A stretch of 59,940 bases of DNA from a virus (Duplodnaviria; Caudoviricetes): IMG/VR virus record IMGVR_UViG_3300027908_000028, positions 1 through 59,940 of that record; one strand, 5' to 3'. Each line of letters opens with the position of its first letter. Position 1 is the first letter of the stretch. This document shows, one piece after another, positions 15,853 to 55,078 of this stretch. The translations under genes and the position numbers were made by a program. The notes under the pieces were generated by a model. The model did no database searches. It was not told where the DNA came from and saw only the letters and a list, made by a program, of their open reading frames with translations.

Positions 15853-17745
15853 ATGCCGATGGGTGAGATGCAGCAAGCGGGAACTACCGCTTTGGGAGAC
15901 GGGGGGACGGGTAGCTCCCGTTTCAGGGCGAAGACGTTCCTTGTCTCGCAGCGCTTCCGCGATCTCGACCGACGGCAGTCCTATTACGACTGCACGCAGA
16001 ACGACTACAAGCGCTTCGACTTCGAAGGGCGCGTCATCTCCTCGGCGGGCGGCATCTCTGCGACGCAGCCACTTCTGAGTTCGGAGAAGTTCGCGCAGTA
16101 CATCCCGCTTCGTTCGCGACGCCCCTCGAGTCCCATCCGGCTCGCGCGCGCGATCGTCAACACCTTCACCAACCTCGTTTTCGGCGAGGGACGCTTTCCG
16201 ACGTTCCAAGTACAGGGCGACGATCAGAGCGAGGACTTCATCGCCACGCTCGTACGCAAGATGTCGCTCCCCGTGAAGATGATCCAGGCGCGTAACCTTG
16301 GCGGCTCGGTCGGCTCCGTTGGATTGTCGTGGTGCTACCTCGAAGGCAAGCCGCGGTGCGAGGTGCACAACACGAAATTTTGCTACGTGCATGAGTGGAC
16401 GGATCGCGAGCAACACATTCCCCGGCACGTCACGGAGCTGAAACAAGAAGCGGTCGACGAATGGGATCCGCAGAAAAAGCAGTACGTCAGAAACGTCTAC
16501 TGGTACCGCCGCGACTGGACTCCAAACGTCGACATCATCTTCGTTCCCGTGCTCGACGAGCCGGGCAAAGATCCGATCTTCGTTCCTGATCTCGCACGCA
16601 GCGAGGAGCACAACGACGGCACGATCCACTTCGTGTGGATCCAGAATACGCCCTGCGACGATATCGACGGACTTCCGGACTACGAGGGTCTTTACGAGCC
16701 GTTCGATGCGCTCGACATCCTCGCCAGCGTGGTGATGAAAGGAGCGACGCTCAACCTCGATCCCACACTCAAGCTCCAGATGGATCCCGACATTGTCAAT
16801 CGGATGGGGATCAAGAAGGGCAGTGACAACGCGCTTATCACGGGCAAGGACGGCGACGCGGATTACCTCGAGCTAAGCGGTCAGTCGATCGAAGCGGGGA
16901 TCAAGCTCATCGAAGCCAAGCGCCGATCCATTCTCGAGGTCGCGCGGTGCGTGATCCCGAACTCCGAAGACGCGACGGCCAACGGCACGTCATCGGTGGC
17001 GATGAAGATGCTCTACGCGCCGTCGCTCGGTGTCTGCGACATCCTTCGCGAGCAGTACGCGCAGGGCATGATCCAGCTTCTCGAGGGGATGACGCAAGTC
17101 GCGCGCATTGCCGCTGCATCGCCGATCTCGATCTACGACAACGACGGCAATGAGCAACAGGTTCAGCGCGTCGTCAATCTTCCTCCGCGCGTGCAACAGG
17201 TCCAGGCTCCTCCTCAGCCCCATGCCCTTCCCGAGCCGACGGAGCCCGGGGAAGAGCCGAGCGAGTCGCAAGAGCCGGATCCGGACAATCCCAATCCCAA
17301 TCAGCCCCCCAAGCCGGAGTTCGACAAGATCGAGCGCACGCCGGGCGAGGGTGGTGAGATTGAGGCGCAGTGGGGTCCGTACTTCCTACCGACTCCGACT
17401 GATCAGCAAGCCGTTGTCACCACGCTTTCGACGGCGCTCGGACCCGGAAACCCTTTCATGTCCCAGCAAACGGCCGTGGAGATCGCGATGCAGGCGTTTG
17501 GGCGTCCCGCGGCCGACGAGCAACAGCGCGTCGCTCAGGAGTCGGCTCAGCAGAAGGCCGATCAGATGCAACAGCTCCAGGGCATCGGGGGAGCGCCTGG
17601 CAAGGATGGTATGCCTCCGGGTGCCAAACCGAAGCCTGGAGGCGGTGGAGCGCCAAAGCCACCCGGGGGCGGCGGAGGTGGGGGTGCGGGCGGAGCGGAC
17701 ACACAGAGCGGCAAGACGAGCGACGACGATGATGCTGAGGTCTAG
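15853..17745 (+). CDS. portal protein (SPP1 gp6-like)
   Basis: LARAIVNTFTNLVFGEG, HFVWIQN, G.DADYLELSG, SSVAMKMLY.P, MSQQTAV motifs; directly upstream of MuF-like gene. Confidence 0.8.
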   Translation: MPMGEMQQAGTTALGDGGTGSSRFRAKTFLVSQRFRDLDRRQSYYDCTQNDYKRFDFEGRVISSAGGISATQPLLSSEKFAQYIPLRSRRPSSPIRLARAIVNTFTNLVFGEGRFPTFQVQGDDQSEDFIATLVRKMSLPVKMIQARNLGGSVGSVGLSWCYLEGKPRCEVHNTKFCYVHEWTDREQHIPRHVTELKQEAVDEWDPQKKQYVRNVYWYRRDWTPNVDIIFVPVLDEPGKDPIFVPDLARSEEHNDGTIHFVWIQNTPCDDIDGLPDYEGLYEPFDALDILASVVMKGATLNLDPTLKLQMDPDIVNRMGIKKGSDNALITGKDGDADYLELSGQSIEAGIKLIEAKRRSILEVARCVIPNSEDATANGTSSVAMKMLYAPSLGVCDILREQYAQGMIQLLEGMTQVARIAAASPISIYDNDGNEQQVQRVVNLPPRVQQVQAPPQPHALPEPTEPGEEPSESQEPDPDNPNPNQPPKPEFDKIERTPGEGGEIEAQWGPYFLPTPTDQQAVVTTLSTALGPGNPFMSQQTAVEIAMQAFGRPAADEQQRVAQESAQQKADQMQQLQGIGGAPGKDGMPPGAKPKPGGGGAPKPPGGGGGGGAGGADTQSGKTSDDDDAEV

Positions 17746-27080: not shown

Positions 27081-29663
27081 ATGGCATCCGTATTCGTAAG
27101 GCGGTTCCTCTTCGATCCCGGGAACAATGTTCTTTTGAACATTGAGAGCGTCAACATCCTGGATCTGACACCGCCGGGATCGATCGCTGGAATCGGAACC
27201 GGAACGGTGCTGATCGTCGGCGAGTTCGAGAACGGACCCTTCAACACGCCAACAGAGGTCAACGGCGCGAGCGACTTGTCCCAGAACTGGGGACTGCTCG
27301 GGTACACCTACGGCGGGGTGCAGGGCTTCAACCCTTGCGCGGCTTCGAGATATGCGGACAACACGCTCGCCGCGGAGAACTGGAACGGCAATGCGTTCGT
27401 TCAGCTGAACGGCAAGCAGTTCGCTCAGCTCGTCGTCTGTCGGGTCAATACCTCCGTGGGTGCGGTGACTCTCACGTCGCGGGCCTTCATCACGGGTAAT
27501 GCCGCATTCCGTTACTTCCTTGCCCCCGGAGATGTGCTCGGGCTCGACGTCGGAGCGGGACCGCAAACAGCGACCTTCACGGCGACCGCTGCAACCGTGA
27601 CCAGCGTCAGCGCAACCTACGCCATGTCGGCGGGGCAGACCGTGACCCTCGGCTACGATGGGGCTCCCAACTTCACGGTCACTTTCCTCGCGAGCGATAC
27701 AACGCAAGCCGCGGTCATCGCGCGGATCAATCAGTACGCTGGATTCACTTTCGCTGCGACGGCGACGGGACAGTTCTCCCTGACCGGCATTCAGCAAGGC
27801 AATCAGGGACAGGTGCGCGTCGTCTCGTCGTCTTCGGGTGGAGTTCTCACGGCACTTGGGCTCACGGTGGGAACGACATTCGGCACGGGCAACGTCGCCA
27901 ACATCCAAGCGGTTACCGAGGCGGAGATTCAGACAGTCGTCCAGGCTGCGGTTTCGAACACGGCCGTCGAGATCGATCCGAACGGCGCGCTCCGGATCTC
28001 CAAGACGACGGCGCTCGCGCAGGACTACGTCTACGTCACGTCAGCGACGACATCGAACGTGCAGACGTCGATGGGATTCGTCCCTGGACAGCAAGGCTCG
28101 AACCTCGGAGTGGGCTTCGTTCTGACGTCCACCGAGACGTACCCGCTCACCAACACGGGAACGATCACCCTCGCGGTCGACGACAACTTCGGTGCGCAGG
28201 GCGTCAACGGCGGAGTTCCTTTCGTTGTCACCATCACGGCGAGCATGGCACTCGCTGCCCTCGTCTCGGCGATCAACACGGCGGCGGGAACTACTGTCGC
28301 ATTCGCAGACTCGACAGGTGGCTTCTCGCTTGTCGGTAAGACCCCCGGCGGACGGATCAACGTTGTCGGCGCGAGCGCGGCCAACGTGCTTTCGCAGATG
28401 GGACTCGCGGTCGGTATCTACAACGGGTCCGGCCTGCCCATCGGGCTCATTCCCGCGGGTACCATCGTTCAGGACGCGTCCGCCGCACACGTCTTCGTGA
28501 CGATGCAGGACGTATCCTTCTCGACTACGGGTGTCACTGTCGGTGGTCTCGTCGCTCCGACGATGGGCCCGTGGTCCGTTCCCATTCGCCACGCGCTCGA
28601 CAACACCCTCGGACTCGGAGCGACGGCGGGAGCCATCGTGGTCCTTCCGAATCCGGTGCTGAGCTACTCCTTGTCGGTCATCAATCCTCAGGTGATCACC
28701 GCAGCACTCTCCGACTCGCAGATCGACGCGCAGTACATCAACGCGCTCAACTCGACGCTCGACATCAACACGGTCGCCAAGACCGTGAACATTCTCTACA
28801 GCGCGCGGCAGTCGAACACGGTTCGCAAGGGTGTGAAGGCGAATGCGCTCAATGCGAGTTCGAACGGGTGCTACGGGCGGGTCGCGGTCATCCGCACGCC
28901 TCTCGGTACGAACAAGAACGTCGCCATGTCGTCCACCGCAGAGCCCGGAGTGGGCGCGTACCGCGATCAGCGCGTCATCTACTGCTGGCCTCAGGGCAAC
29001 ACCTTCGTTCCCATCATCGGTCAGCGGGGGACGGCGGGTGGTCTCGGCTACACGTACAACGGCAACGTGGACGTGGGCGCCGATGGCTTCATGGCCTCGA
29101 TCCTCAGCCAGCTCCCACCCGAGGAGAACCCCGGTCAGGAGACGCCGTTCACCACGGCACTCAACTCACTCGAGTCGAGTCCCAACGCAGCGGGACTGCA
29201 GATCACCGACTACATCAACCTGAAGGCGGCGGGCATCGCTGCCCTCCGGATGGACTCGGGGACGGCGATCTTTCAGTCAGGAGTCACCAGCGTCGATCCG
29301 AACGTCTACCCCTCACTCGTTCGGATCTCGCGTCGGCGCATGGCGGACTTCATTCAGGACAGCCTCGCGCAGCTGGCGAGCGGCTTCGGGAAGAAGCTGT
29401 CTACGAACGCACGCCGTGCGGGGCTCACTTCGGAGATCCGGGCGTTCATGGAACAGCTCTTGAACAAGGGCAATCCGAACGGTCAGCGCATTGCCGGCTA
29501 CACGGTCGACGGTGTCACGGGCAACACGCCGGACACTCTCTCGCTCGGTATCTTCCGGATCATCGTCAACGTCCAAACACTTCCGTCGCTCGACTCGATT
29601 GTTCTTCAGACGACGATCGGCGAGCAAGTCCAAGTGCAAGAGGTCTTTCCCCAGGCGGCGTAG
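27081..29663 (+). CDS. contractile tail sheath protein with insertion domains
   Basis: N-terminal IVGEFENGPFNTP; C-terminal LKAAGI, ISRRRMADFIQDSL, IFRIIVNV; followed by tube gene. Confidence 0.88.
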   Translation: MASVFVRRFLFDPGNNVLLNIESVNILDLTPPGSIAGIGTGTVLIVGEFENGPFNTPTEVNGASDLSQNWGLLGYTYGGVQGFNPCAASRYADNTLAAENWNGNAFVQLNGKQFAQLVVCRVNTSVGAVTLTSRAFITGNAAFRYFLAPGDVLGLDVGAGPQTATFTATAATVTSVSATYAMSAGQTVTLGYDGAPNFTVTFLASDTTQAAVIARINQYAGFTFAATATGQFSLTGIQQGNQGQVRVVSSSSGGVLTALGLTVGTTFGTGNVANIQAVTEAEIQTVVQAAVSNTAVEIDPNGALRISKTTALAQDYVYVTSATTSNVQTSMGFVPGQQGSNLGVGFVLTSTETYPLTNTGTITLAVDDNFGAQGVNGGVPFVVTITASMALAALVSAINTAAGTTVAFADSTGGFSLVGKTPGGRINVVGASAANVLSQMGLAVGIYNGSGLPIGLIPAGTIVQDASAAHVFVTMQDVSFSTTGVTVGGLVAPTMGPWSVPIRHALDNTLGLGATAGAIVVLPNPVLSYSLSVINPQVITAALSDSQIDAQYINALNSTLDINTVAKTVNILYSARQSNTVRKGVKANALNASSNGCYGRVAVIRTPLGTNKNVAMSSTAEPGVGAYRDQRVIYCWPQGNTFVPIIGQRGTAGGLGYTYNGNVDVGADGFMASILSQLPPEENPGQETPFTTALNSLESSPNAAGLQITDYINLKAAGIAALRMDSGTAIFQSGVTSVDPNVYPSLVRISRRRMADFIQDSLAQLASGFGKKLSTNARRAGLTSEIRAFMEQLLNKGNPNGQRIAGYTVDGVTGNTPDTLSLGIFRIIVNVQTLPSLDSIVLQTTIGEQVQVQEVFPQAA

Positions 29664-49348: not shown

Positions 49349-49399
49349 AACGAATTGGCGTGTTGTGGATCGAAGACGGCATTACGGTCTCTGTCCCGA

Positions 49400-52036
49400 A
49401 TGGATTCCGTTCACATCCGCATCGACAACAGGGTCCGCGTCGACACGACGGGACTCGAAGACGTCGTCACCAATGCGCTGAAGGAATCGTTCGACCATTC
49501 CAACCCCGAGTTTCACAAGCGCCAGCACATGGGCTTCGCGACGTGGAACATCCCGCGCGAGATCCGGACCTGGAACGAAAGCAACTCCTGGAATACCAAG
49601 GCGCTCGACTTCCCCCGCGGCGGAGCTGCCCGAGTGCGCGAGGTACTCGATCGCTACGGACTCGATCGCGTGTACGAAGACGCTCGCTGTCTCGGCGCAT
49701 CACTCACGAACGAGATCCCCGATCACAAGGTCGAACTCTGGGACCATCAGAAAGAACTCGTCGACGCCGCGGTCAAGCTCGAGAACTGCATTCTGAAAGC
49801 GCCGACCGGATCGGGAAAAACGACAGTCGCCTTCGCCATCGCTGCCCGCTTGAAGCTTCCGACGCTGGTCATCGTCTCGACGGCGGCACTCTTCAAGCAA
49901 TGGGTCACTCGAGCAGAAAAAGAACTCGGGATCCGAAAGCGCGATCTTGGAATCATCCGCGCGGGCAAGCGCAAGCTCGGAGTACTCACGATTGCGATGC
50001 AGCGCTCTCTCGCCGTCGGAGGGATCGACGGCGATCTCGCGAGGTACTTTGGGTGCGTCATCGCGGACGAATGTTTCGAGTCACACACCCCAGTGTTGAT
50101 GGCGGATGGGACGCACAAGCACATCGAGGACATCGTGGAGGGGGACGAGGTTGCCTTGGGTGGACGGGTGCTTGGCGTGGGGAGTCGCTGGTATGAGGGA
50201 AAGTTGTCGACGTGCGGAGGTAGTCTCGTGACACCCGAGCATCCTGTCTGGACGGAAAGGGGGTGGGTGCCGACAAAGTCTGTTTGCAGCGAAGACAATC
50301 TCAGGCACGATCCGTTGCATGAAGTGCGACGTTTGCAACAAACCTCTTCCAGGACAAAACCGGCGGGGGAGATGTCGTTCCCATGGGATGGGAACGTTCG
50401 ACAAGCAGACGGACGAGTGTCTGTTATGCGGGAGGCAGGTTCCGGCGAAGAAGCGCGGGTATCACGCCTCGACGAAGTGCGAAACTCGGGGGCCTTGGAA
50501 CAAAGGCAAGACGTCCGAGGACTCGCTTTCGGTTCGAGTGGGCGCCGAGAAGCGCAAGGGGCAAGTGCGCACTACGGTAAGCAGGATGTTCCGTCAGCTT
50601 TGGCGCGATCCGAAGAAGCGCGAGCAGTGGACCAAGAGCATGTCTGTAGGGCAGCGCAAACGATTCGAGAAGGACGAGGAACGAAAGGCGTCAAGGGAGC
50701 GTACGTTGGGGCTCATCAAAGAGGGGAAGATGAAGGCGTACGGGGGCAGGACACATGGCAAAGGCGCGATCCCCACTTCCTCGGAGCTGGCACTGTGGAG
50801 GGCGCTGCGCCCACTGGGCTTCAAAAGAGAACTGGTCGTGAGGACCGGGCAGCGGACGCCGACTTACTACGCATTGGACTTCGCGCACGAGGAGACGAAG
50901 TTGGCGTTGGAGATCGACGGGAGCAGTCACCAGCCGAAGGCGAGGAGGGAATCCGACGCGCGGAAGGATGCATTTCTCAAGACGCGTGGGTGGACAGTAA
51001 AGCGCTTCCGGGAGACGTCCGACTCGAGAGACATCGTGGCTTGGTGCGAGCGTTGGATGGTGTCGTTGGCTCGCTGAGGGTTCACAACCTTCAGACTGAA
51101 CGAGGGGTGTACGTGGCAGCCGGGGTGCTCGTACATAACTGTCAGCTCTTCGCAGCCAAGACGTTCATCGAGACCATTGATCCGTTTCCGGCCAAGTACC
51201 GAATCGGGATCTCTGCCGATCACCGCCGCAAGGATCGAAAGGAGTTTCTGATCCATGATCTCTTCGGCAGTGTGGCCGCGGAGGTGAAGCGCCGCGATCT
51301 CATCGACGTGGGCGTCATCGTCGACACGCTCATTCGCGTCGTGCCGACCAACTTCGAGGCGCCTTGGTACGGCAAGCCCGACGACGAACATCCAGCGACC
51401 TTCGAGCAACTTCTGGATGACCGAAAGTCGACTTTCGATCCGTCTGAGATCGCCAAAGAGCTGGACTGGGACAGGTTGCTCGAAGAGATGGCCAACGATG
51501 AAGACAGGCAGCGTCTTGCCGCGTGGTGCGTGAAGGACGGACTACGCGAAGACTCTCAGGTGCTCGTGATGAGTCATCGTCGCGATCACTGTCGCGCGCT
51601 CGATCAAGAGTTCGTGCGCATGGGCCTGACGACAGGCTTTCTCATCGGTGGTGCGGACTACCAACGCGAGTTCGACGCGGTGCGTACACGGTTCGAAAAA
51701 GAAGATCTTCAAGTTGCCATTGGTACATTTCAGGCAATCGGATACGGTATCGACTTACCCAAGGCGTCCGTTGTCGTATGCGTCACCCCCATCGCGTCCA
51801 ATCAGTTTTTCTTCAATCAGGTGCGGGGACGCGTGTGCCGCAAGGCCAAAGGCAAGACGGGCAGCACCATGTTCTACCTCTGGGACGAGAAGCTCTACGG
51901 GGACAAGCATCTCCGGAATCTTCTCCGATGGAATGGTCACGTGGTCGTGTGGGTCGGCGGCAAGTGGATCGGGGCGAAGGAATATCTGCGCGACAAGCGC
52001 GACAAGGCGAAAGCCACTGAAGGGACCGAAACATGA
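49400..52036 (+). CDS. SF2 (DExH/ResIII-like) helicase containing an intein
   Basis: Q motif LWDHQ, Walker A APTGSGKT, Walker B IADE|CQ split by the intein, GISA, GIDLP, QVRGRVCR. Confidence 0.9.
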   Translation: MDSVHIRIDNRVRVDTTGLEDVVTNALKESFDHSNPEFHKRQHMGFATWNIPREIRTWNESNSWNTKALDFPRGGAARVREVLDRYGLDRVYEDARCLGASLTNEIPDHKVELWDHQKELVDAAVKLENCILKAPTGSGKTTVAFAIAARLKLPTLVIVSTAALFKQWVTRAEKELGIRKRDLGIIRAGKRKLGVLTIAMQRSLAVGGIDGDLARYFGCVIADECFESHTPVLMADGTHKHIEDIVEGDEVALGGRVLGVGSRWYEGKLSTCGGSLVTPEHPVWTERGWVPTKSVCSEDNLRHDPLHEVRRLQQTSSRTKPAGEMSFPWDGNVRQADGRVSVMREAGSGEEARVSRLDEVRNSGALEQRQDVRGLAFGSSGRREAQGASAHYGKQDVPSALARSEEARAVDQEHVCRAAQTIREGRGTKGVKGAYVGAHQRGEDEGVRGQDTWQRRDPHFLGAGTVEGAAPTGLQKRTGREDRAADADLLRIGLRARGDEVGVGDRREQSPAEGEEGIRRAEGCISQDAWVDSKALPGDVRLERHRGLVRALDGVVGSLRVHNLQTERGVYVAAGVLVHNCQLFAAKTFIETIDPFPAKYRIGISADHRRKDRKEFLIHDLFGSVAAEVKRRDLIDVGVIVDTLIRVVPTNFEAPWYGKPDDEHPATFEQLLDDRKSTFDPSEIAKELDWDRLLEEMANDEDRQRLAAWCVKDGLREDSQVLVMSHRRDHCRALDQEFVRMGLTTGFLIGGADYQREFDAVRTRFEKEDLQVAIGTFQAIGYGIDLPKASVVVCVTPIASNQFFFNQVRGRVCRKAKGKTGSTMFYLWDEKLYGDKHLRNLLRWNGHVVVWVGGKWIGAKEYLRDKRDKAKATEGTET
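50072..51139 (+). mobile_element. intein (356 aa) in the helicase Walker B motif
   Basis: block A CFESHTPVLMADG, block B VTPEHPVWT, blocks F/G VHNLQT..GVYVAAGVLVHN, +1 Cys. Confidence 0.92.
50319..51077 (+). CDS. DUF559/Vsr-like PD-(D/E)xK endonuclease nested out of frame in the intein
   Basis: CDVC and CLLC Zn-finger-like pairs, PWNKGKT, TSSE..LW..L, LDFA....KLALEIDGSSH, DARKDAFL...GWTVKRF. Confidence 0.85.
   Translation: MKCDVCNKPLPGQNRRGRCRSHGMGTFDKQTDECLLCGRQVPAKKRGYHASTKCETRGPWNKGKTSEDSLSVRVGAEKRKGQVRTTVSRMFRQLWRDPKKREQWTKSMSVGQRKRFEKDEERKASRERTLGLIKEGKMKAYGGRTHGKGAIPTSSELALWRALRPLGFKRELVVRTGQRTPTYYALDFAHEETKLALEIDGSSHQPKARRESDARKDAFLKTRGWTVKRFRETSDSRDIVAWCERWMVSLAR
51419..51440. repeat. 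22-bp palindrome copy 9 (1 mismatch), inside helicase CDS
   Basis: GACCGAAAGTCGACTTTCGATC read as DRKSTFD. Confidence 0.95.
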
Positions 52037-52818
52037 GAAAGCGAAGCGACGTTCAAGCAGCGGCAGATCCGAGACAGACAGCCATTCCAGGGACCGAAAC
52101 TCCCAAAGCCGTGCCTGATCCCCCGCCGAGCAGTCCTCGCCCGAAGTCTTCGACCTCGTCCGCGCCCGACCACGTCACGGTCGACAACGGGATCGTTTTC
52201 ATCAAGTGCATCGATTGTGGTCTCAATCAGTCTGCGGCAACCGGCAAGCTCGTCGAGATGCCCAATGGCAAGAAGCTTCTGCACTGCGTTCGGTGCAATG
52301 GCCTTCTCGATCCGGACGAGGAGCTGACTCCGGAGTTTCTCGAGAAGCTCAAGGCGCAGTCGGGCAAAGCCGCTACCCCGGCTCCCGCACAACCGCCTCC
52401 CAAGGCAGCCGCTCCGGCTCCGAAGCCTACTCCCGCGCAGAGCGCCCCGAATACGAGTGGTCCCAAGTGCGTCAAGTGCGGAGTCACAATGACGCAGACT
52501 TCGAGTGGTCTCTTCGCTCCGTGCGGACACCCGCAGACGACCACGGCACCGAGCGCGACTCCTGTCACGGGTGCCGAGGGAGAGACCGTGACTGCGTGCT
52601 ACGGCGAGGAGAAGTTCTCTCCGCGGCAGTATCAGAGTTTCGGGATCGGGCCGTTCTTCCGGACGACTCGTCTTCAGCCCGGTGAGAACGCTTCCCAAGC
52701 GCTCGCACGCGCCAGCTCCGAGCTTCGCACCTTCGCTCAGATCGAGTTCGAGCAGAAGGCGAAGGACTTCCTGTCCAAGCTAGAGTGGCTCGATGCGAAG
52801 CTTGGGGGTGGCAAGTGA
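52033..52818 (+). CDS. Zn-ribbon, Pro-rich replication-region protein
   Basis: CIDC, CVRC, CVKC pairs; ATGA coupling. Confidence 0.7.
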   Translation: MRKRSDVQAAADPRQTAIPGTETPKAVPDPPPSSPRPKSSTSSAPDHVTVDNGIVFIKCIDCGLNQSAATGKLVEMPNGKKLLHCVRCNGLLDPDEELTPEFLEKLKAQSGKAATPAPAQPPPKAAAPAPKPTPAQSAPNTSGPKCVKCGVTMTQTSSGLFAPCGHPQTTTAPSATPVTGAEGETVTACYGEEKFSPRQYQSFGIGPFFRTTRLQPGENASQALARASSELRTFAQIEFEQKAKDFLSKLEWLDAKLGGGK

Positions 52819-53545: not shown

Positions 53546-55078
53546 ATGCGACGGCGCAGCGATGTATCGGGAGACGTGTTGCCTAAAGCGACGAGTGAAC
53601 TCGTCGTCAAAGTCGACCTAGTCAATGAGCAAGTTATCATCACCGCGACCATTGTCTCGCTTTGCAGTGACGATTCGGGTCCGGCGTATCGGCTTCTCGA
53701 CAGACTCCCGCCCGAGGTCTTTACTGACGATCGCGCGGCGATCTGGGCTGCACTTCGAGCGATGCGCCAGAGGCGGCTTGCCTACGATCCAGCGACACTC
53801 CAGTCCATTGCGGGTGACAAGGTTCGCATCTCCCTCCTCGCGGAGTGGGTGACGGCGCGTCCCGAGTTCCCCGAGAACATCGAGCATCATGTTGATTCTC
53901 TCCTCTGGGACCGCAAGCGCTCGCAAGCGGTCAAGGGTCCACTCGCATCGCTTCTCGAGGCAATCAAGAACCCACTCGAGACACCCGAGCGAGTCAATGC
54001 GCTCGCACGCGGCATCGTCGATGCCCTTTCAGGACACGAGCGACAATACATCTACGATCCTGCCGCGATCGTCGCTGAGCAGATGGCTGAGATCCGCAAG
54101 CGACTCGAGGGGCAAGCGGTCTACCCCTTCGGGCTCGATGGCCTCGACTACTACGAAGCGGACATCCAAGCGCACCGCCCACGGCGGATGATCCCCGGCA
54201 CGGCTCCAGGCCACGTCACGGTCATCACGGCTGTTCCCGGTGCGGGAAAGAGCACTCTCGCCGCACGTATCGCGCTCGGACTCGGAGTCACCAATCACCG
54301 CCGGGTTGCGTATGGCGCGTGGGAGGTCAAGGGTCCGATGACCCTTGAGATCATGGCATGCATGTCGCTCGGGTGGAGTCGTACCGATCTGCTCGATCCT
54401 CAGGGAGCACTGAAGAAGGGCAAGCCGCTCACTCCCGAGCTTCTCGTGCAGCTCGAGGAGAAGATGCACGAGATCGCTCGATGGGTGACGTTCATCAAGA
54501 ACCCTTTCCGGCGACGTGCCTCCGAGCGCAAGAGCGCCAAGAGCAATGAGGCGAATCTCGATCTCGTTCAGTCACTCGTTTCGGAGTCCGGGTGCGAGGT
54601 CTTCATCGCTGATCTCTGGGCACGGTGTCTCGCGTCGCGCGATCCCGGCGACGAAGAAGAGGCGCTCTTTCGGCAACAGGCGATGCTCGAAGAGATGGGC
54701 GTCCACGGGATCCTCGTGCATCAGCAACGGCACAAGGACATTGAGCTACGAAACGACAAGCGGCCTACGCGCGAAGGGCTCAAAGGATCGGGCGCGTATC
54801 TCGAGACGGCCGACAACTTGATCGGCGTCCACCGTCCGGCACAATGGCGGAAGGTCGAAGACGACAAGATGGAGCTTTTCATCCTGAAACAACGATCGGG
54901 CGAAGAGCGCATTGGCATCGAGTTCGATTGGAATCCTGAGACCGGAGAGATCAGGGGTGGACGATCCATCGATTATGATCCGATGGGCGATGCGTCGGCT
55001 CGATTGGGTGACTCGTTCACGCGCCCGAATACGACGTCGGACATCTCTTCAGAGAAACGGTCGAAACGTGGTCGCTGA
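53546..55078 (+). CDS. dnaB: DnaB-like replicative helicase
   Basis: N-terminal DnaB-like domain (E..II, L.PEVF), Walker A AVPGAGKS, FIADL, HQ, RPTREGLKGSGAYLETAD, KQRSG. Confidence 0.85.
   Translation: MRRRSDVSGDVLPKATSELVVKVDLVNEQVIITATIVSLCSDDSGPAYRLLDRLPPEVFTDDRAAIWAALRAMRQRRLAYDPATLQSIAGDKVRISLLAEWVTARPEFPENIEHHVDSLLWDRKRSQAVKGPLASLLEAIKNPLETPERVNALARGIVDALSGHERQYIYDPAAIVAEQMAEIRKRLEGQAVYPFGLDGLDYYEADIQAHRPRRMIPGTAPGHVTVITAVPGAGKSTLAARIALGLGVTNHRRVAYGAWEVKGPMTLEIMACMSLGWSRTDLLDPQGALKKGKPLTPELLVQLEEKMHEIARWVTFIKNPFRRRASERKSAKSNEANLDLVQSLVSESGCEVFIADLWARCLASRDPGDEEEALFRQQAMLEEMGVHGILVHQQRHKDIELRNDKRPTREGLKGSGAYLETADNLIGVHRPAQWRKVEDDKMELFILKQRSGEERIGIEFDWNPETGEIRGGRSIDYDPMGDASARLGDSFTRPNTTSDISSEKRSKRGR

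Follow-up and report, generated by a model that had tools for sequence, protein, structure and literature searches.

Textbook inteins carry their endonuclease in frame with the protein that they interrupt. The question addressed here is whether an intein in a phage helicase gene, on IMG/VR virus record IMGVR_UViG_3300027908_000028, follows this rule, or whether its nuclease is a second gene that overlaps the host gene in another frame. The window referred to throughout is the whole stretch analysed, positions 1 to 59,940 of that linear record (59,940 bases, estimated completeness 64%, GC content 60.5%), and all coordinates are those of the window. An earlier note, made from the letters alone, had proposed a dual-coding element, consisting of an intein without an endonuclease of its own and a nuclease gene nested within it in the +1 frame. 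With a probability of roughly 0.8, we read the locus as a composite mobile element in which a contiguous intein of class-1 type at DE/C (the slash marks the insertion point, here and below) is combined with an independent, overlapping homing endonuclease gene in the +1 frame.

The locus comprises the following features, frame 0 being that of the helicase and frame +1 that read one base later.

49355..52036, plus strand: helicase precursor open reading frame (ORF), 893 amino acids, of helicase superfamily 2 (SF2), with ResIII/DEAD and Helicase_C domains; the first start codon is TTG, and an ATG lies at 49400
49355..50071, plus strand: N-extein, with the C-terminal end ...VIADE (the acidic pair of motif II / Walker B)
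50072..51139, plus strand: intein in frame 0, 356 amino acids, Cys1...His-Asn with Cys at +1; residues 240-595 of the precursor
50072..50281, plus strand: N-terminal Hint subdomain, blocks A and B (TPEH); 44.2 bits with our own Hint-N hidden Markov model (HMM), independent E-value 8.1e-15
50282..51079, plus strand: frame-0 read-through linker, open, without a domain, poor in hydrophobic residues and predicted to be disordered
50319..51077, plus strand: nuclease gene in the +1 frame, 252 amino acids, ATG to TGA
50319..50489, plus strand: Cys/His-rich N-terminal region of the nuclease, with two CxxC pairs and a conserved PWNKG; putative DNA-recognition part
50775..51017, plus strand: Vsr-like / DUF559 catalytic domain, nuclease residues 153-233
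51080..51139, plus strand: C-terminal Hint subdomain, blocks F and G (...VLVHN); 23.0 bits with our own Hint-C HMM, independent E-value 1.9e-8
51140..52036, plus strand: C-extein, with the N-terminal start CQLFAAK (which completes the DE-CQ of motif II) and bearing Helicase_C

The host ORF matched the Pfam domains ResIII (4.6e-10), DEAD (3.3e-8) and Helicase_C (7.4e-6), and PHROG 16, DNA helicase (2.6e-39). The intein starts with CFESHTPVLMADG... (CFESHTPV), ends with ...GVLVHN followed by CQLFAAK, and splits helicase motif II as ...VIADE/CQLF.... At the DNA level the insertion point is ...GCGGACGAA/TGTCAG..., which is the intein-less sequence coding for DE/CQ. Cys1, at 50072, directly follows ...VIADE, the Thr-x-x-His of block B is present as TPEH, and the C-terminal junction reads ...VLVHN/C. 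When 43 related inteins were aligned, C1, H57 and N356 were invariant and T54 and H355 nearly so. Pfam returned only Hint-type matches at the N end of the intein, to Vint (3.6e-5) and Hom_end_hint (1.1e-4), both under the gathering score. The structure of the frame-0 product was modelled with AlphaFold from an alignment with 42 related inteins. The pLDDT score (predicted local distance difference test) was 79-97 for residues 1-90 and 85-96 for residues 331-356, which are the two Hint halves, and the top Foldseek matches of the model were all inteins or Hint domains, gp41-1 included (probability about 1.0, best E 3.7e-3). The 356-residue C...HN/C intein in the Walker B motif, DE/CQ, that the earlier note had described was therefore found at the positions it gave. 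The intact catalytic residues and intact flanking helicase motifs suggest that this class-1-type intein, at 50072-51139, would be active in splicing.

The middle of the intein is of a different character. Across about 250 residues at its centre, Pfam gave no domain and no endonuclease match in frame 0. The fraction of ILVFMWY in the window's linker is 0.20, with R at 0.14 and G at 0.13, and the ILVFMWY fraction of the frame-0 middle averages 0.215 over 43 loci, compared with 0.32 in exteins. In the intein model 209 residues of the middle had pLDDT below 50, with no secondary structure. Frame 0 is free of stops from 49355 to 52036, unlike in a fractured gene, where a stop follows the N-intein. 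Nor is the locus a canonical bifunctional intein, as the DUF559 match lies in frame +1 and no endonuclease is found in frame 0.

The +1 frame contained the 252-residue ORF that had been described as a zinc finger, a PWNKG motif and a DUF559/Vsr-like nuclease with its own ATG and stop. Its product matched DUF559 (PF04480) with an E-value of 1.5e-11 and 44.6 bits, against a Pfam cut-off of 20.6. The TGA overlaps the frame-0 codons CTG AGG, just before the C-terminal Hint match at 51080. In 15 aligned relatives of the nuclease, D187, E198, D200, H204, D213 and K216 were invariant, and C54, W60, N61 and G63 were nearly invariant among relatives. The ExDGxxH...D block aligns with the solved structures 3hrl and 3r3p, as a block and not residue by residue against the published EDxHD motif. 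Our own nuclease HMM scored 333 bits on the window ORF, and 1815 proteins of a representative library matched it at E up to 1e-3. The best of these relatives have 255-266 amino acids and align end to end; the top match (E 2.5e-56) has 265 amino acids and covers residues 1-232. Profile comparison with solved structures gave the DUF559 protein 3hrl (1e-7) and 3r3p, the catalytic domain of I-Bth0305I (7.6e-5). The structural model of the nuclease had a pLDDT of 76, mostly above 90 in the catalytic domain, and its best fold matches were PvuRts1I, 3hrl, 3r3p and 1vsr. Target-normalised template modelling scores were 0.64 for 3hrl, 0.62-0.63 for 3r3p and 0.50 for 1vsr, each with probability 1.0 and E above 1e-3. 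The N-terminal Cys/His-rich region matched C2H2 zinc-finger profiles weakly (E 0.002-0.03) and is a putative DNA-recognition part. A PHROG search with the nuclease gave only phrog_9529 (9.4e-4, unknown function), and a word-index protein search only three weak matches.

Base composition also distinguished the two frames. Over the overlap, the GC content at codon positions one, two and three is 0.54/0.51/0.76 in the +1 frame, which is gene-like (the exteins have 0.61/0.44/0.74), and 0.76/0.54/0.51 in frame 0, which is not. The central in-frame residues, which the earlier note had thought to look off-frame, thus combine the lack of a domain with non-coding codon statistics and predicted disorder.

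The layout is not peculiar to the window. An assembly of two soil-metagenome runs by a second assembler covered 49900-51300 with 0 differences and 0 gaps, at a word depth of about 11. We then compared 116 loci by nuclease profile scoring, namely 35 viral and 80 metagenome loci encoding relatives of the nuclease, and the window; the 80 metagenome loci were the best 80 of 202 relatives confirmed among at least 599 pattern matches. The nuclease ORF was nested in a long open frame lying at the nuclease frame minus 1 in 65 of the 116, the window included. No locus had the other offset, two were in frame, and 49 had other arrangements. Merging at 97% nucleotide identity or more left 88 clusters, 44 of them nested (again including the window), and the 51 clusters with a profile score of at least 60 comprised these 44, two in-frame loci and five others. 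The GC content of the 43 other nested loci ranges from 30 to 68%. In all 44 the N-Hint match ends at or overlaps the start of the nuclease ORF, and the C-Hint match lies at its end or within a few codons of it. Pfam was run on ten of the nested hosts, finding Hint or Intein_splicing in nine; the hosts were ResIII/DEAD or SNF2 proteins or Terminase_3 (the terminase large subunit). Among the 43 inteins that could be aligned (that of locus L062 is cut at the N end), Cys1 and the terminal Asn were invariant. The inteins end in His-Asn in about 40 cases and in Ser-Asn in three, and the next residue is Cys in all except one. The junctions are mostly DE/CF...HN/CH, in helicase motif II; two inteins interrupt terminase large subunits, and three occupy other sites. 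The tail of the nuclease overlaps block F in most loci, and the junctions are conserved. From genomes, with one genome per species, the best 80 of 238 loci were taken; the survey as a whole is a sample and not a census. Five of these 80 were high-scoring, and all five had Hint halves in the nuclease-minus-1 frame, four of them contiguous and one split. Of the relatives, L120 is on a contig from a Dethiobacter metagenome-assembled genome and L122 belongs to one of Eubacteriales. The same layout is therefore common to 43 further non-redundant viral and metagenome loci and four genome contigs, always at +1 and never at +2. Several of the nuclease relatives in the library end in ...STT or ...STI, which is block F (V-Y-D/N-L) read one base later, a hint that they too may be nested.

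Selection was compared between frames in the middle region of 16 loci with inteins of 273-276 amino acids, medians being taken over the 33 of 120 pairs with nucleotide identity of 0.6-0.97. Amino acid identity was higher in the nuclease frame than in the host frame in 120 of 120 pairs (medians 66% and 38%). The median ratio of non-synonymous to synonymous change (dN/dS, omega) was 0.15 in the nuclease frame, where dS is saturated, and 1.55 in the host frame. This check, which the earlier note had suggested, shows purifying selection in the nuclease frame alone: in these relatives the +1 frame is conserved, and frame 0 is constrained merely not to stop.

Both frames proved stop-free over the overlap, as had been stated, together with the caution that high GC makes an open alternate frame easier. 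We estimated the probability of an open frame 0 from how often stops occur when genuine coding sequence is read in the frame that lies one base upstream. In the window genome this coding-minus-1 frame has 0.0137 stops per codon, giving a probability of about 0.03, and the helicase's own flanks gave 0.035. An open frame is thus cheap at the window's GC content, and taken by itself the window is a weak argument for selection on frame 0. Because of this, the argument for a host frame that is kept open is carried by the relatives of low GC. For 41 of the 44 nested loci (three were left out, as their flanks were too short), the probability that the host frame is open over the nuclease ORF was calculated from the flanks of the same gene. 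The median was 3.4e-5, and the value was below 0.01 in 30 of the 41. Loci of 30-42% GC gave about 1e-10 to 1e-12, for example 3.5e-12 at GC 0.39 and 7e-11 at GC 0.30. Stops in frame 0 have therefore been selected against among the relatives.

A different test, synonymous resampling or permutation of the nuclease ORF (frame 0 open in 0 of 20000), was discarded, as its null was biased for all 14 control genes. In these 14 long plus-strand genes of the window the coding-minus-1 frame has far fewer stops than synonymous permutation predicts; at 27081-29663, for example, 3 stops were observed and 16.8 expected. Owing to this codon-pair effect, permutation tests for overlapping frames are anti-conservative in the window.

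A start codon (ATG, in one case GTG) precedes the first CxxC or the nuclease domain in 42 of the 43 other nested loci. The ATG of the window nuclease lies one codon before the first Cys of the zinc motif, within the CxxC as matched, and for that reason it was not logged in the scan for starts ahead of the motif. A Shine–Dalgarno-like (SD-like) 4-mer was found at -16..-6 of the nuclease ATG in 24 of 43 relatives, compared with 179 of 1754 ATG triplets (10.2%) in the same ORFs (p 1.8e-13). In one clade the motif GGAG is formed by the Val-Glu codons of the Hint strand ...VELSNG..., and the ATG spans Asn-Gly. The start signal in that clade therefore seems to lie within codons of the splicing domain.

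Taken together, these data lead us to propose the following pathway. Ribosomes would make the helicase precursor by translating frame 0, including about 265 codons for a non-conserved, disordered linker from which stops are kept out. Both Hint halves would fold together, excise the whole insert and restore DE-CQ. The Vsr-like nuclease (DUF559, probably EDxHD-type) would be made separately, from its own +1 ATG, and would cut intein-less helicase alleles of co-infecting phages near the site coding for DE/CQ. Repair would then copy intein and nuclease into the cut allele.

Several observations weigh against this proposal. The 22 bases ahead of the window's nuclease ATG contain an AGG at about -17 but no SD-like motif, and this counts against independent initiation in the window. 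The SD enrichment stems partly from one clade, through shared ancestry, so that the 24 cases cannot be counted as separate events. Among RNA runs, none was listed as containing the window stretch. The dN/dS evidence comes from another subclade than the window's: in a tree of loci with scores of at least 58 and 10 library proteins, the window falls with P0005, P0004 and other library proteins, together with L062, L002, L038 and L058, and no close DNA relative of the window nuclease, its helicase or P0005 was found among viral contigs. On its own the open frame 0 of the window is only modestly unlikely (about 0.03-0.035). The 44 hosts scored with the Hint HMMs had also served to build these HMMs iteratively, with Pfam as an independent check on 10 of the 44, and the Foldseek matches of the intein and nuclease models all have E above 1e-3. 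Finally, the two soil-metagenome runs may be the source sample of the window, and contigs drop rare variants, so that the second assembly rules out assembler error and not read-level error.

Of the other explanations, the one that survives best is that the nuclease is a silent or decaying passenger. According to this, the window intein still splices and no longer homes, and the +1 ORF has simply not yet acquired stops. The missing SD-like signal fits such a state, as does the lack of close DNA relatives with which selection could be tested in the window's own lineage, and L062 shows that the nuclease can decay to a relic. The window ORF is nevertheless of full length (252 amino acids), aligns end to end with relatives of 255-266 amino acids at E down to 2.5e-56, has kept all family-invariant residues and has a gene-like GC content of 0.76 at third codon positions. 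We consider a passenger unlikely.

Programmed ribosomal frameshifting from frame 0 could yield a fusion of N-extein, Hint-N and nuclease or, with a second shift, an intein with its nuclease in frame. Upstream of the ATG the +1 frame continues without a stop for 29 codons, reaching into the region that encodes Hint, and the window ATG lacks an SD-like motif. In canonical inteins the Hint domain aids DNA binding. The starts ahead of the first CxxC or nuclease domain in 42 of 43 loci, and the excess of SD-like motifs over the 10% background, argue against this explanation. Inspection of the window junction (50229-50330) by eye, without a systematic scan, revealed no convincing frameshift motif and no conserved slippery motif. 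A working intein would need two shifts, and we know of no precedent for two shifts per precursor. Moreover, since the host frame is closed in the split-intein relatives, translation of their nuclease must start on its own. Frameshifting is in our view somewhat less probable again than a passenger.

A sequencing artefact would require two compensating indels flanking the nuclease, the true gene being a canonical intein with an in-frame Vsr-like endonuclease. Such in-frame DUF559 inteins do exist, in UvrD-type helicases (L055, L061, P0133, P0137 and P0141), and the window is a metagenome contig of modest depth, about 11. The in-frame cases, however, come from another family of helicases, and their matches to the window-derived Hint HMMs are weak. 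The check for compensating indels that the earlier note had called for found none at contig level, the second assembly being identical and without gaps. A stronger argument than this assembly is that the +1 offset recurs across many samples, in 43 further non-redundant nested loci, and in four genome contigs, with conserved junctions and with the nuclease tail overlapping block F. We therefore regard an artefact as very improbable.

That the open frame 0 codes for a genuine endonuclease or regulatory domain that escaped recognition, with the +1 ORF as a by-product of composition in a genome of 60.5% GC, can be practically discounted, given the +1 product's score above the Pfam DUF559 cut-off and its 1815 library matches at E up to 1e-3, the absence from frame 0 of a domain match, coding-type GC by position and predicted structure, and the relatives' omega of about 1.55 and median identity of 38%, against 66% in the nuclease frame.

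The composite reading is thus left as the best supported, and the dual coding claimed for the window, with the nuclease in +1 between blocks B and F and frame 0 kept open, recurs in the 43 other loci with frame-specific selection. Relatives in other states bear on how such an element could arise. In three loci the nuclease and the Hint halves are the same, the latter again at the nuclease frame minus 1, but the host frame is closed. These are L004 (represented by five near-identical contigs), L057 and L119. In the host frame of these split loci ...LQVV and three stops follow block B, and a Met opens the C-intein part. Across the nuclease the host frame contains 35 stops in L004 and 17 in L057, of all three kinds. 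The three loci form one well-supported clade adjoining the nested locus L026, and they are fractured genes, with split inteins, as defined by Dassa et al. 2009. L052 is a free-standing nuclease without Hint halves. In L055:353-4276, L061:779-4201, P0133, P0137 and P0141, all UvrD-type helicases, Intein_splicing and DUF559 lie in one frame; these are canonical in-frame Vsr-like inteins, and they score 6-28 bits with the window-derived Hint HMMs, compared with 49-99 bits for the N part of nested loci. L062 is the nearest relative of the window helicase, with an intein at the same site (Hint N part 50% and C-extein 29% identical). The middle of its intein has 65 amino acids, compared with 270, and holds a 68-codon nuclease relic that is still in the +1 frame; by these features it is a mini-intein relative of the window helicase. 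An intein-less allele of the window helicase was not found among the sequences searched. A decayed copy is present at L033:2265-2884, where the nuclease frame is broken (an open stretch of 55 amino acids) and the N-Hint and C-Hint parts stand in two different frames.

The invasion of a mini-intein by a free-standing nuclease, proposed in the earlier note, fits this series of a free-standing form (L052), split forms (L004, L057, L119) and a mini-intein (L062). A broader proposal is that these loci represent a large and old lineage of phage inteins, in which the Vsr-like endonuclease is a true +1 overlapping gene, this being the main form of the clade, and in which contiguous and split inteins interconvert by gain and loss of stops in the linker. 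To this we would give even odds.

The comparisons that follow draw on the accessible parts of the cited papers. In the fractured genes that Dassa et al. 2009 (PMC2677866) described, a free-standing Vsr-like or GIY-YIG endonuclease gene stands between the halves of a split intein. The 3' end of the nuclease overlaps the start of the C-intein coding region, by 6-69 bp in 15 loci, and the model presented there (Fig. 5 legend) has fracture or in-frame insertion as outcomes, with no contiguous out-of-frame form seen in the passages on it. The window shares with them a Vsr-like nuclease, its position between Hint halves on the same strand and the kind of host, phage helicases and terminases. The overlap of the nuclease 3' end with the start of the C-intein coding region is likewise shared, and L004, L057 and L119 have the same arrangement with the +1 offset. 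In contrast to the fractured genes, the host frame of the window is free of stops and needs no restart, one polypeptide would splice in cis, and a stretch of about 265 codons serves two reading frames. The host helicase also differs, being gp41 (DnaB-like) in the fractured genes and an SF2 DExH helicase in the window. The window element therefore looks like a contiguous sibling of the fractured genes.

Contiguous inteins of actinophages with the endonuclease in another frame than the splicing domain have been described by Gosselin, Arsenault and Gogarten (10.1101/2025.01.02.630785). Their cases include a same-strand endonuclease VII-like enzyme in frame 3, an antisense LAGLIDADG and an antisense Vsr-like endonuclease; the hosts are DNA polymerase, minor capsid, terminase and thymidylate synthase genes, and the architectures are called rare. 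The likeness to the window extends to the Vsr-like/EDxHD type among the out-of-frame endonucleases and to the proposed origin by invasion of a free-standing endonuclease. Here, by comparison, the Vsr-like nuclease is on the same strand at +1, sits mostly in helicase motif II and represents the majority state of the nuclease clade as sampled. The same preprint states that Vsr-like endonucleases are otherwise reported only with split inteins, with which the in-frame DUF559 inteins of UvrD helicases contrast.

Phillips, DeSimone and Gogarten (10.64898/2026.09.14.751524) report a cyanobacterial dnaX intein with a LAGLIDADG endonuclease in the +2 frame, analysed by frame-specific dN/dS. That intein, too, is contiguous with an endonuclease in an overlapping frame, has low dN/dS in the endonuclease frame and raised dN/dS in the intein frame, and has mini-intein relatives, from which secondary invasion of a mini-intein was proposed. 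It differs in the LAGLIDADG type, the +2 ORF, the bacterial chromosomal host gene and the single insertion site. The authors credit the idea to Gorbalenya 1998, which is also cited in 10.1101/2025.01.02.630785.

The nuclease itself resembles I-Bth0305I (PDB 3r3p), which Taylor et al. 2011 (PMC3239194) characterised as the prototype of the EDxHD family that they named, in its C-terminal Vsr-like catalytic domain, with conserved acidic residues and His that may correspond to the EDxHD motif, and in a putative N-terminal DNA-binding region. I-Bth0305I differs in belonging to a group I intron of recA and in its NUMOD-type N-terminal motifs. The N-terminus of the window nuclease is rich in Cys and His and its gene is nested in an intein, and its closest relative by sequence among solved structures is 3hrl (1e-7). 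The ShiLan phage methylase gene (Arsenault et al. 2025, PMC11855218) contains an insertion with a hidden, out-of-frame HNH endonuclease and is likewise open in the host frame. That insertion has no splicing domain, and its read-through stays in the protein, whereas the Hint halves of the window should excise the insert.

The dual-coding reading of the earlier note holds, then, and its mechanism is the best supported. Its novelty is limited, in that the principle of out-of-frame or antisense endonucleases in contiguous inteins has been published (10.1101/2025.01.02.630785, 10.64898/2026.09.14.751524). What we describe is a newly found form of a known principle, the same-strand +1 Vsr-like nuclease in contiguous inteins. 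This form in helicase and terminase inteins, its abundance and its kinship with fractured genes were not found in the literature searched, with subscription journals mostly outside the search; Gorbalenya 1998 or the supplementary tables of the preprints may list such a case.

Gene callers and intein databases that follow only the host frame would label these elements as inteins without an endonuclease, or with a degenerate one, and would call the nuclease a stand-alone hypothetical protein. As 44 of 51 high-scoring non-redundant loci are nested, annotation of this kind will mislabel such elements. The contiguous, split and mini forms with one frame offset provide a concrete series for how split inteins arise, and if contiguous and split forms do convert into each other, the origin of split inteins could be tested with living intermediates. 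The locus is also a naturally occurring example of dual coding over a long stretch of one strand, where the sole demand on one of the frames is to avoid stops. It seems that a Hint domain can accommodate some 200-270 linker residues of practically any sequence, a property that would be useful for intein engineering if splicing is confirmed.

Elsewhere in the window, PHROG matches at 1e-5 were absent for 6 of 10 large ORFs, which points to a poorly charted soil phage. Those obtained include the following.

1028-2680: ATP-dependent protease-like AAA protein, by PHROG match
15853-17742: portal protein, by PHROG match
53546-55075: DnaB-like helicase, by PHROG match

Directly downstream of the helicase gene, at 52033-52818, is an ORF of 261 amino acids, its ATG overlapping the stop codon of the helicase (ATGA). 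The product contains CxxC pairs, is of low complexity and rich in Ala and Pro in its middle, and had no PHROG match at 1e-5.

Some host genes in the survey appear to hold more than one intein. The terminase large subunit of L003:1645-4767 has two, the first (host residues 137-430) with the nested +1 nuclease and the second (residues 688-1003) with N- and C-Hint matches and about 315 amino acids of other content. The helicase of L010:82-3525 has a second, upstream intein (N-Hint match at host residues 148-213) with LAGLIDADG-like motifs in frame; judged by eye, a canonical and an out-of-frame intein would here share one gene. Additional Hint matches away from the nested nuclease, in L042 (N 4-32 and C 184-204) and L071 (N 623-691), suggest further inteins in those host genes. 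Very long host open frames surround the nested nuclease in L063:1-5544 and L117 (1848 and 1816 amino acids). The nucleases of these two loci are sisters in the tree (100/99), and the L117 contig was binned as Spirochaetaceae.

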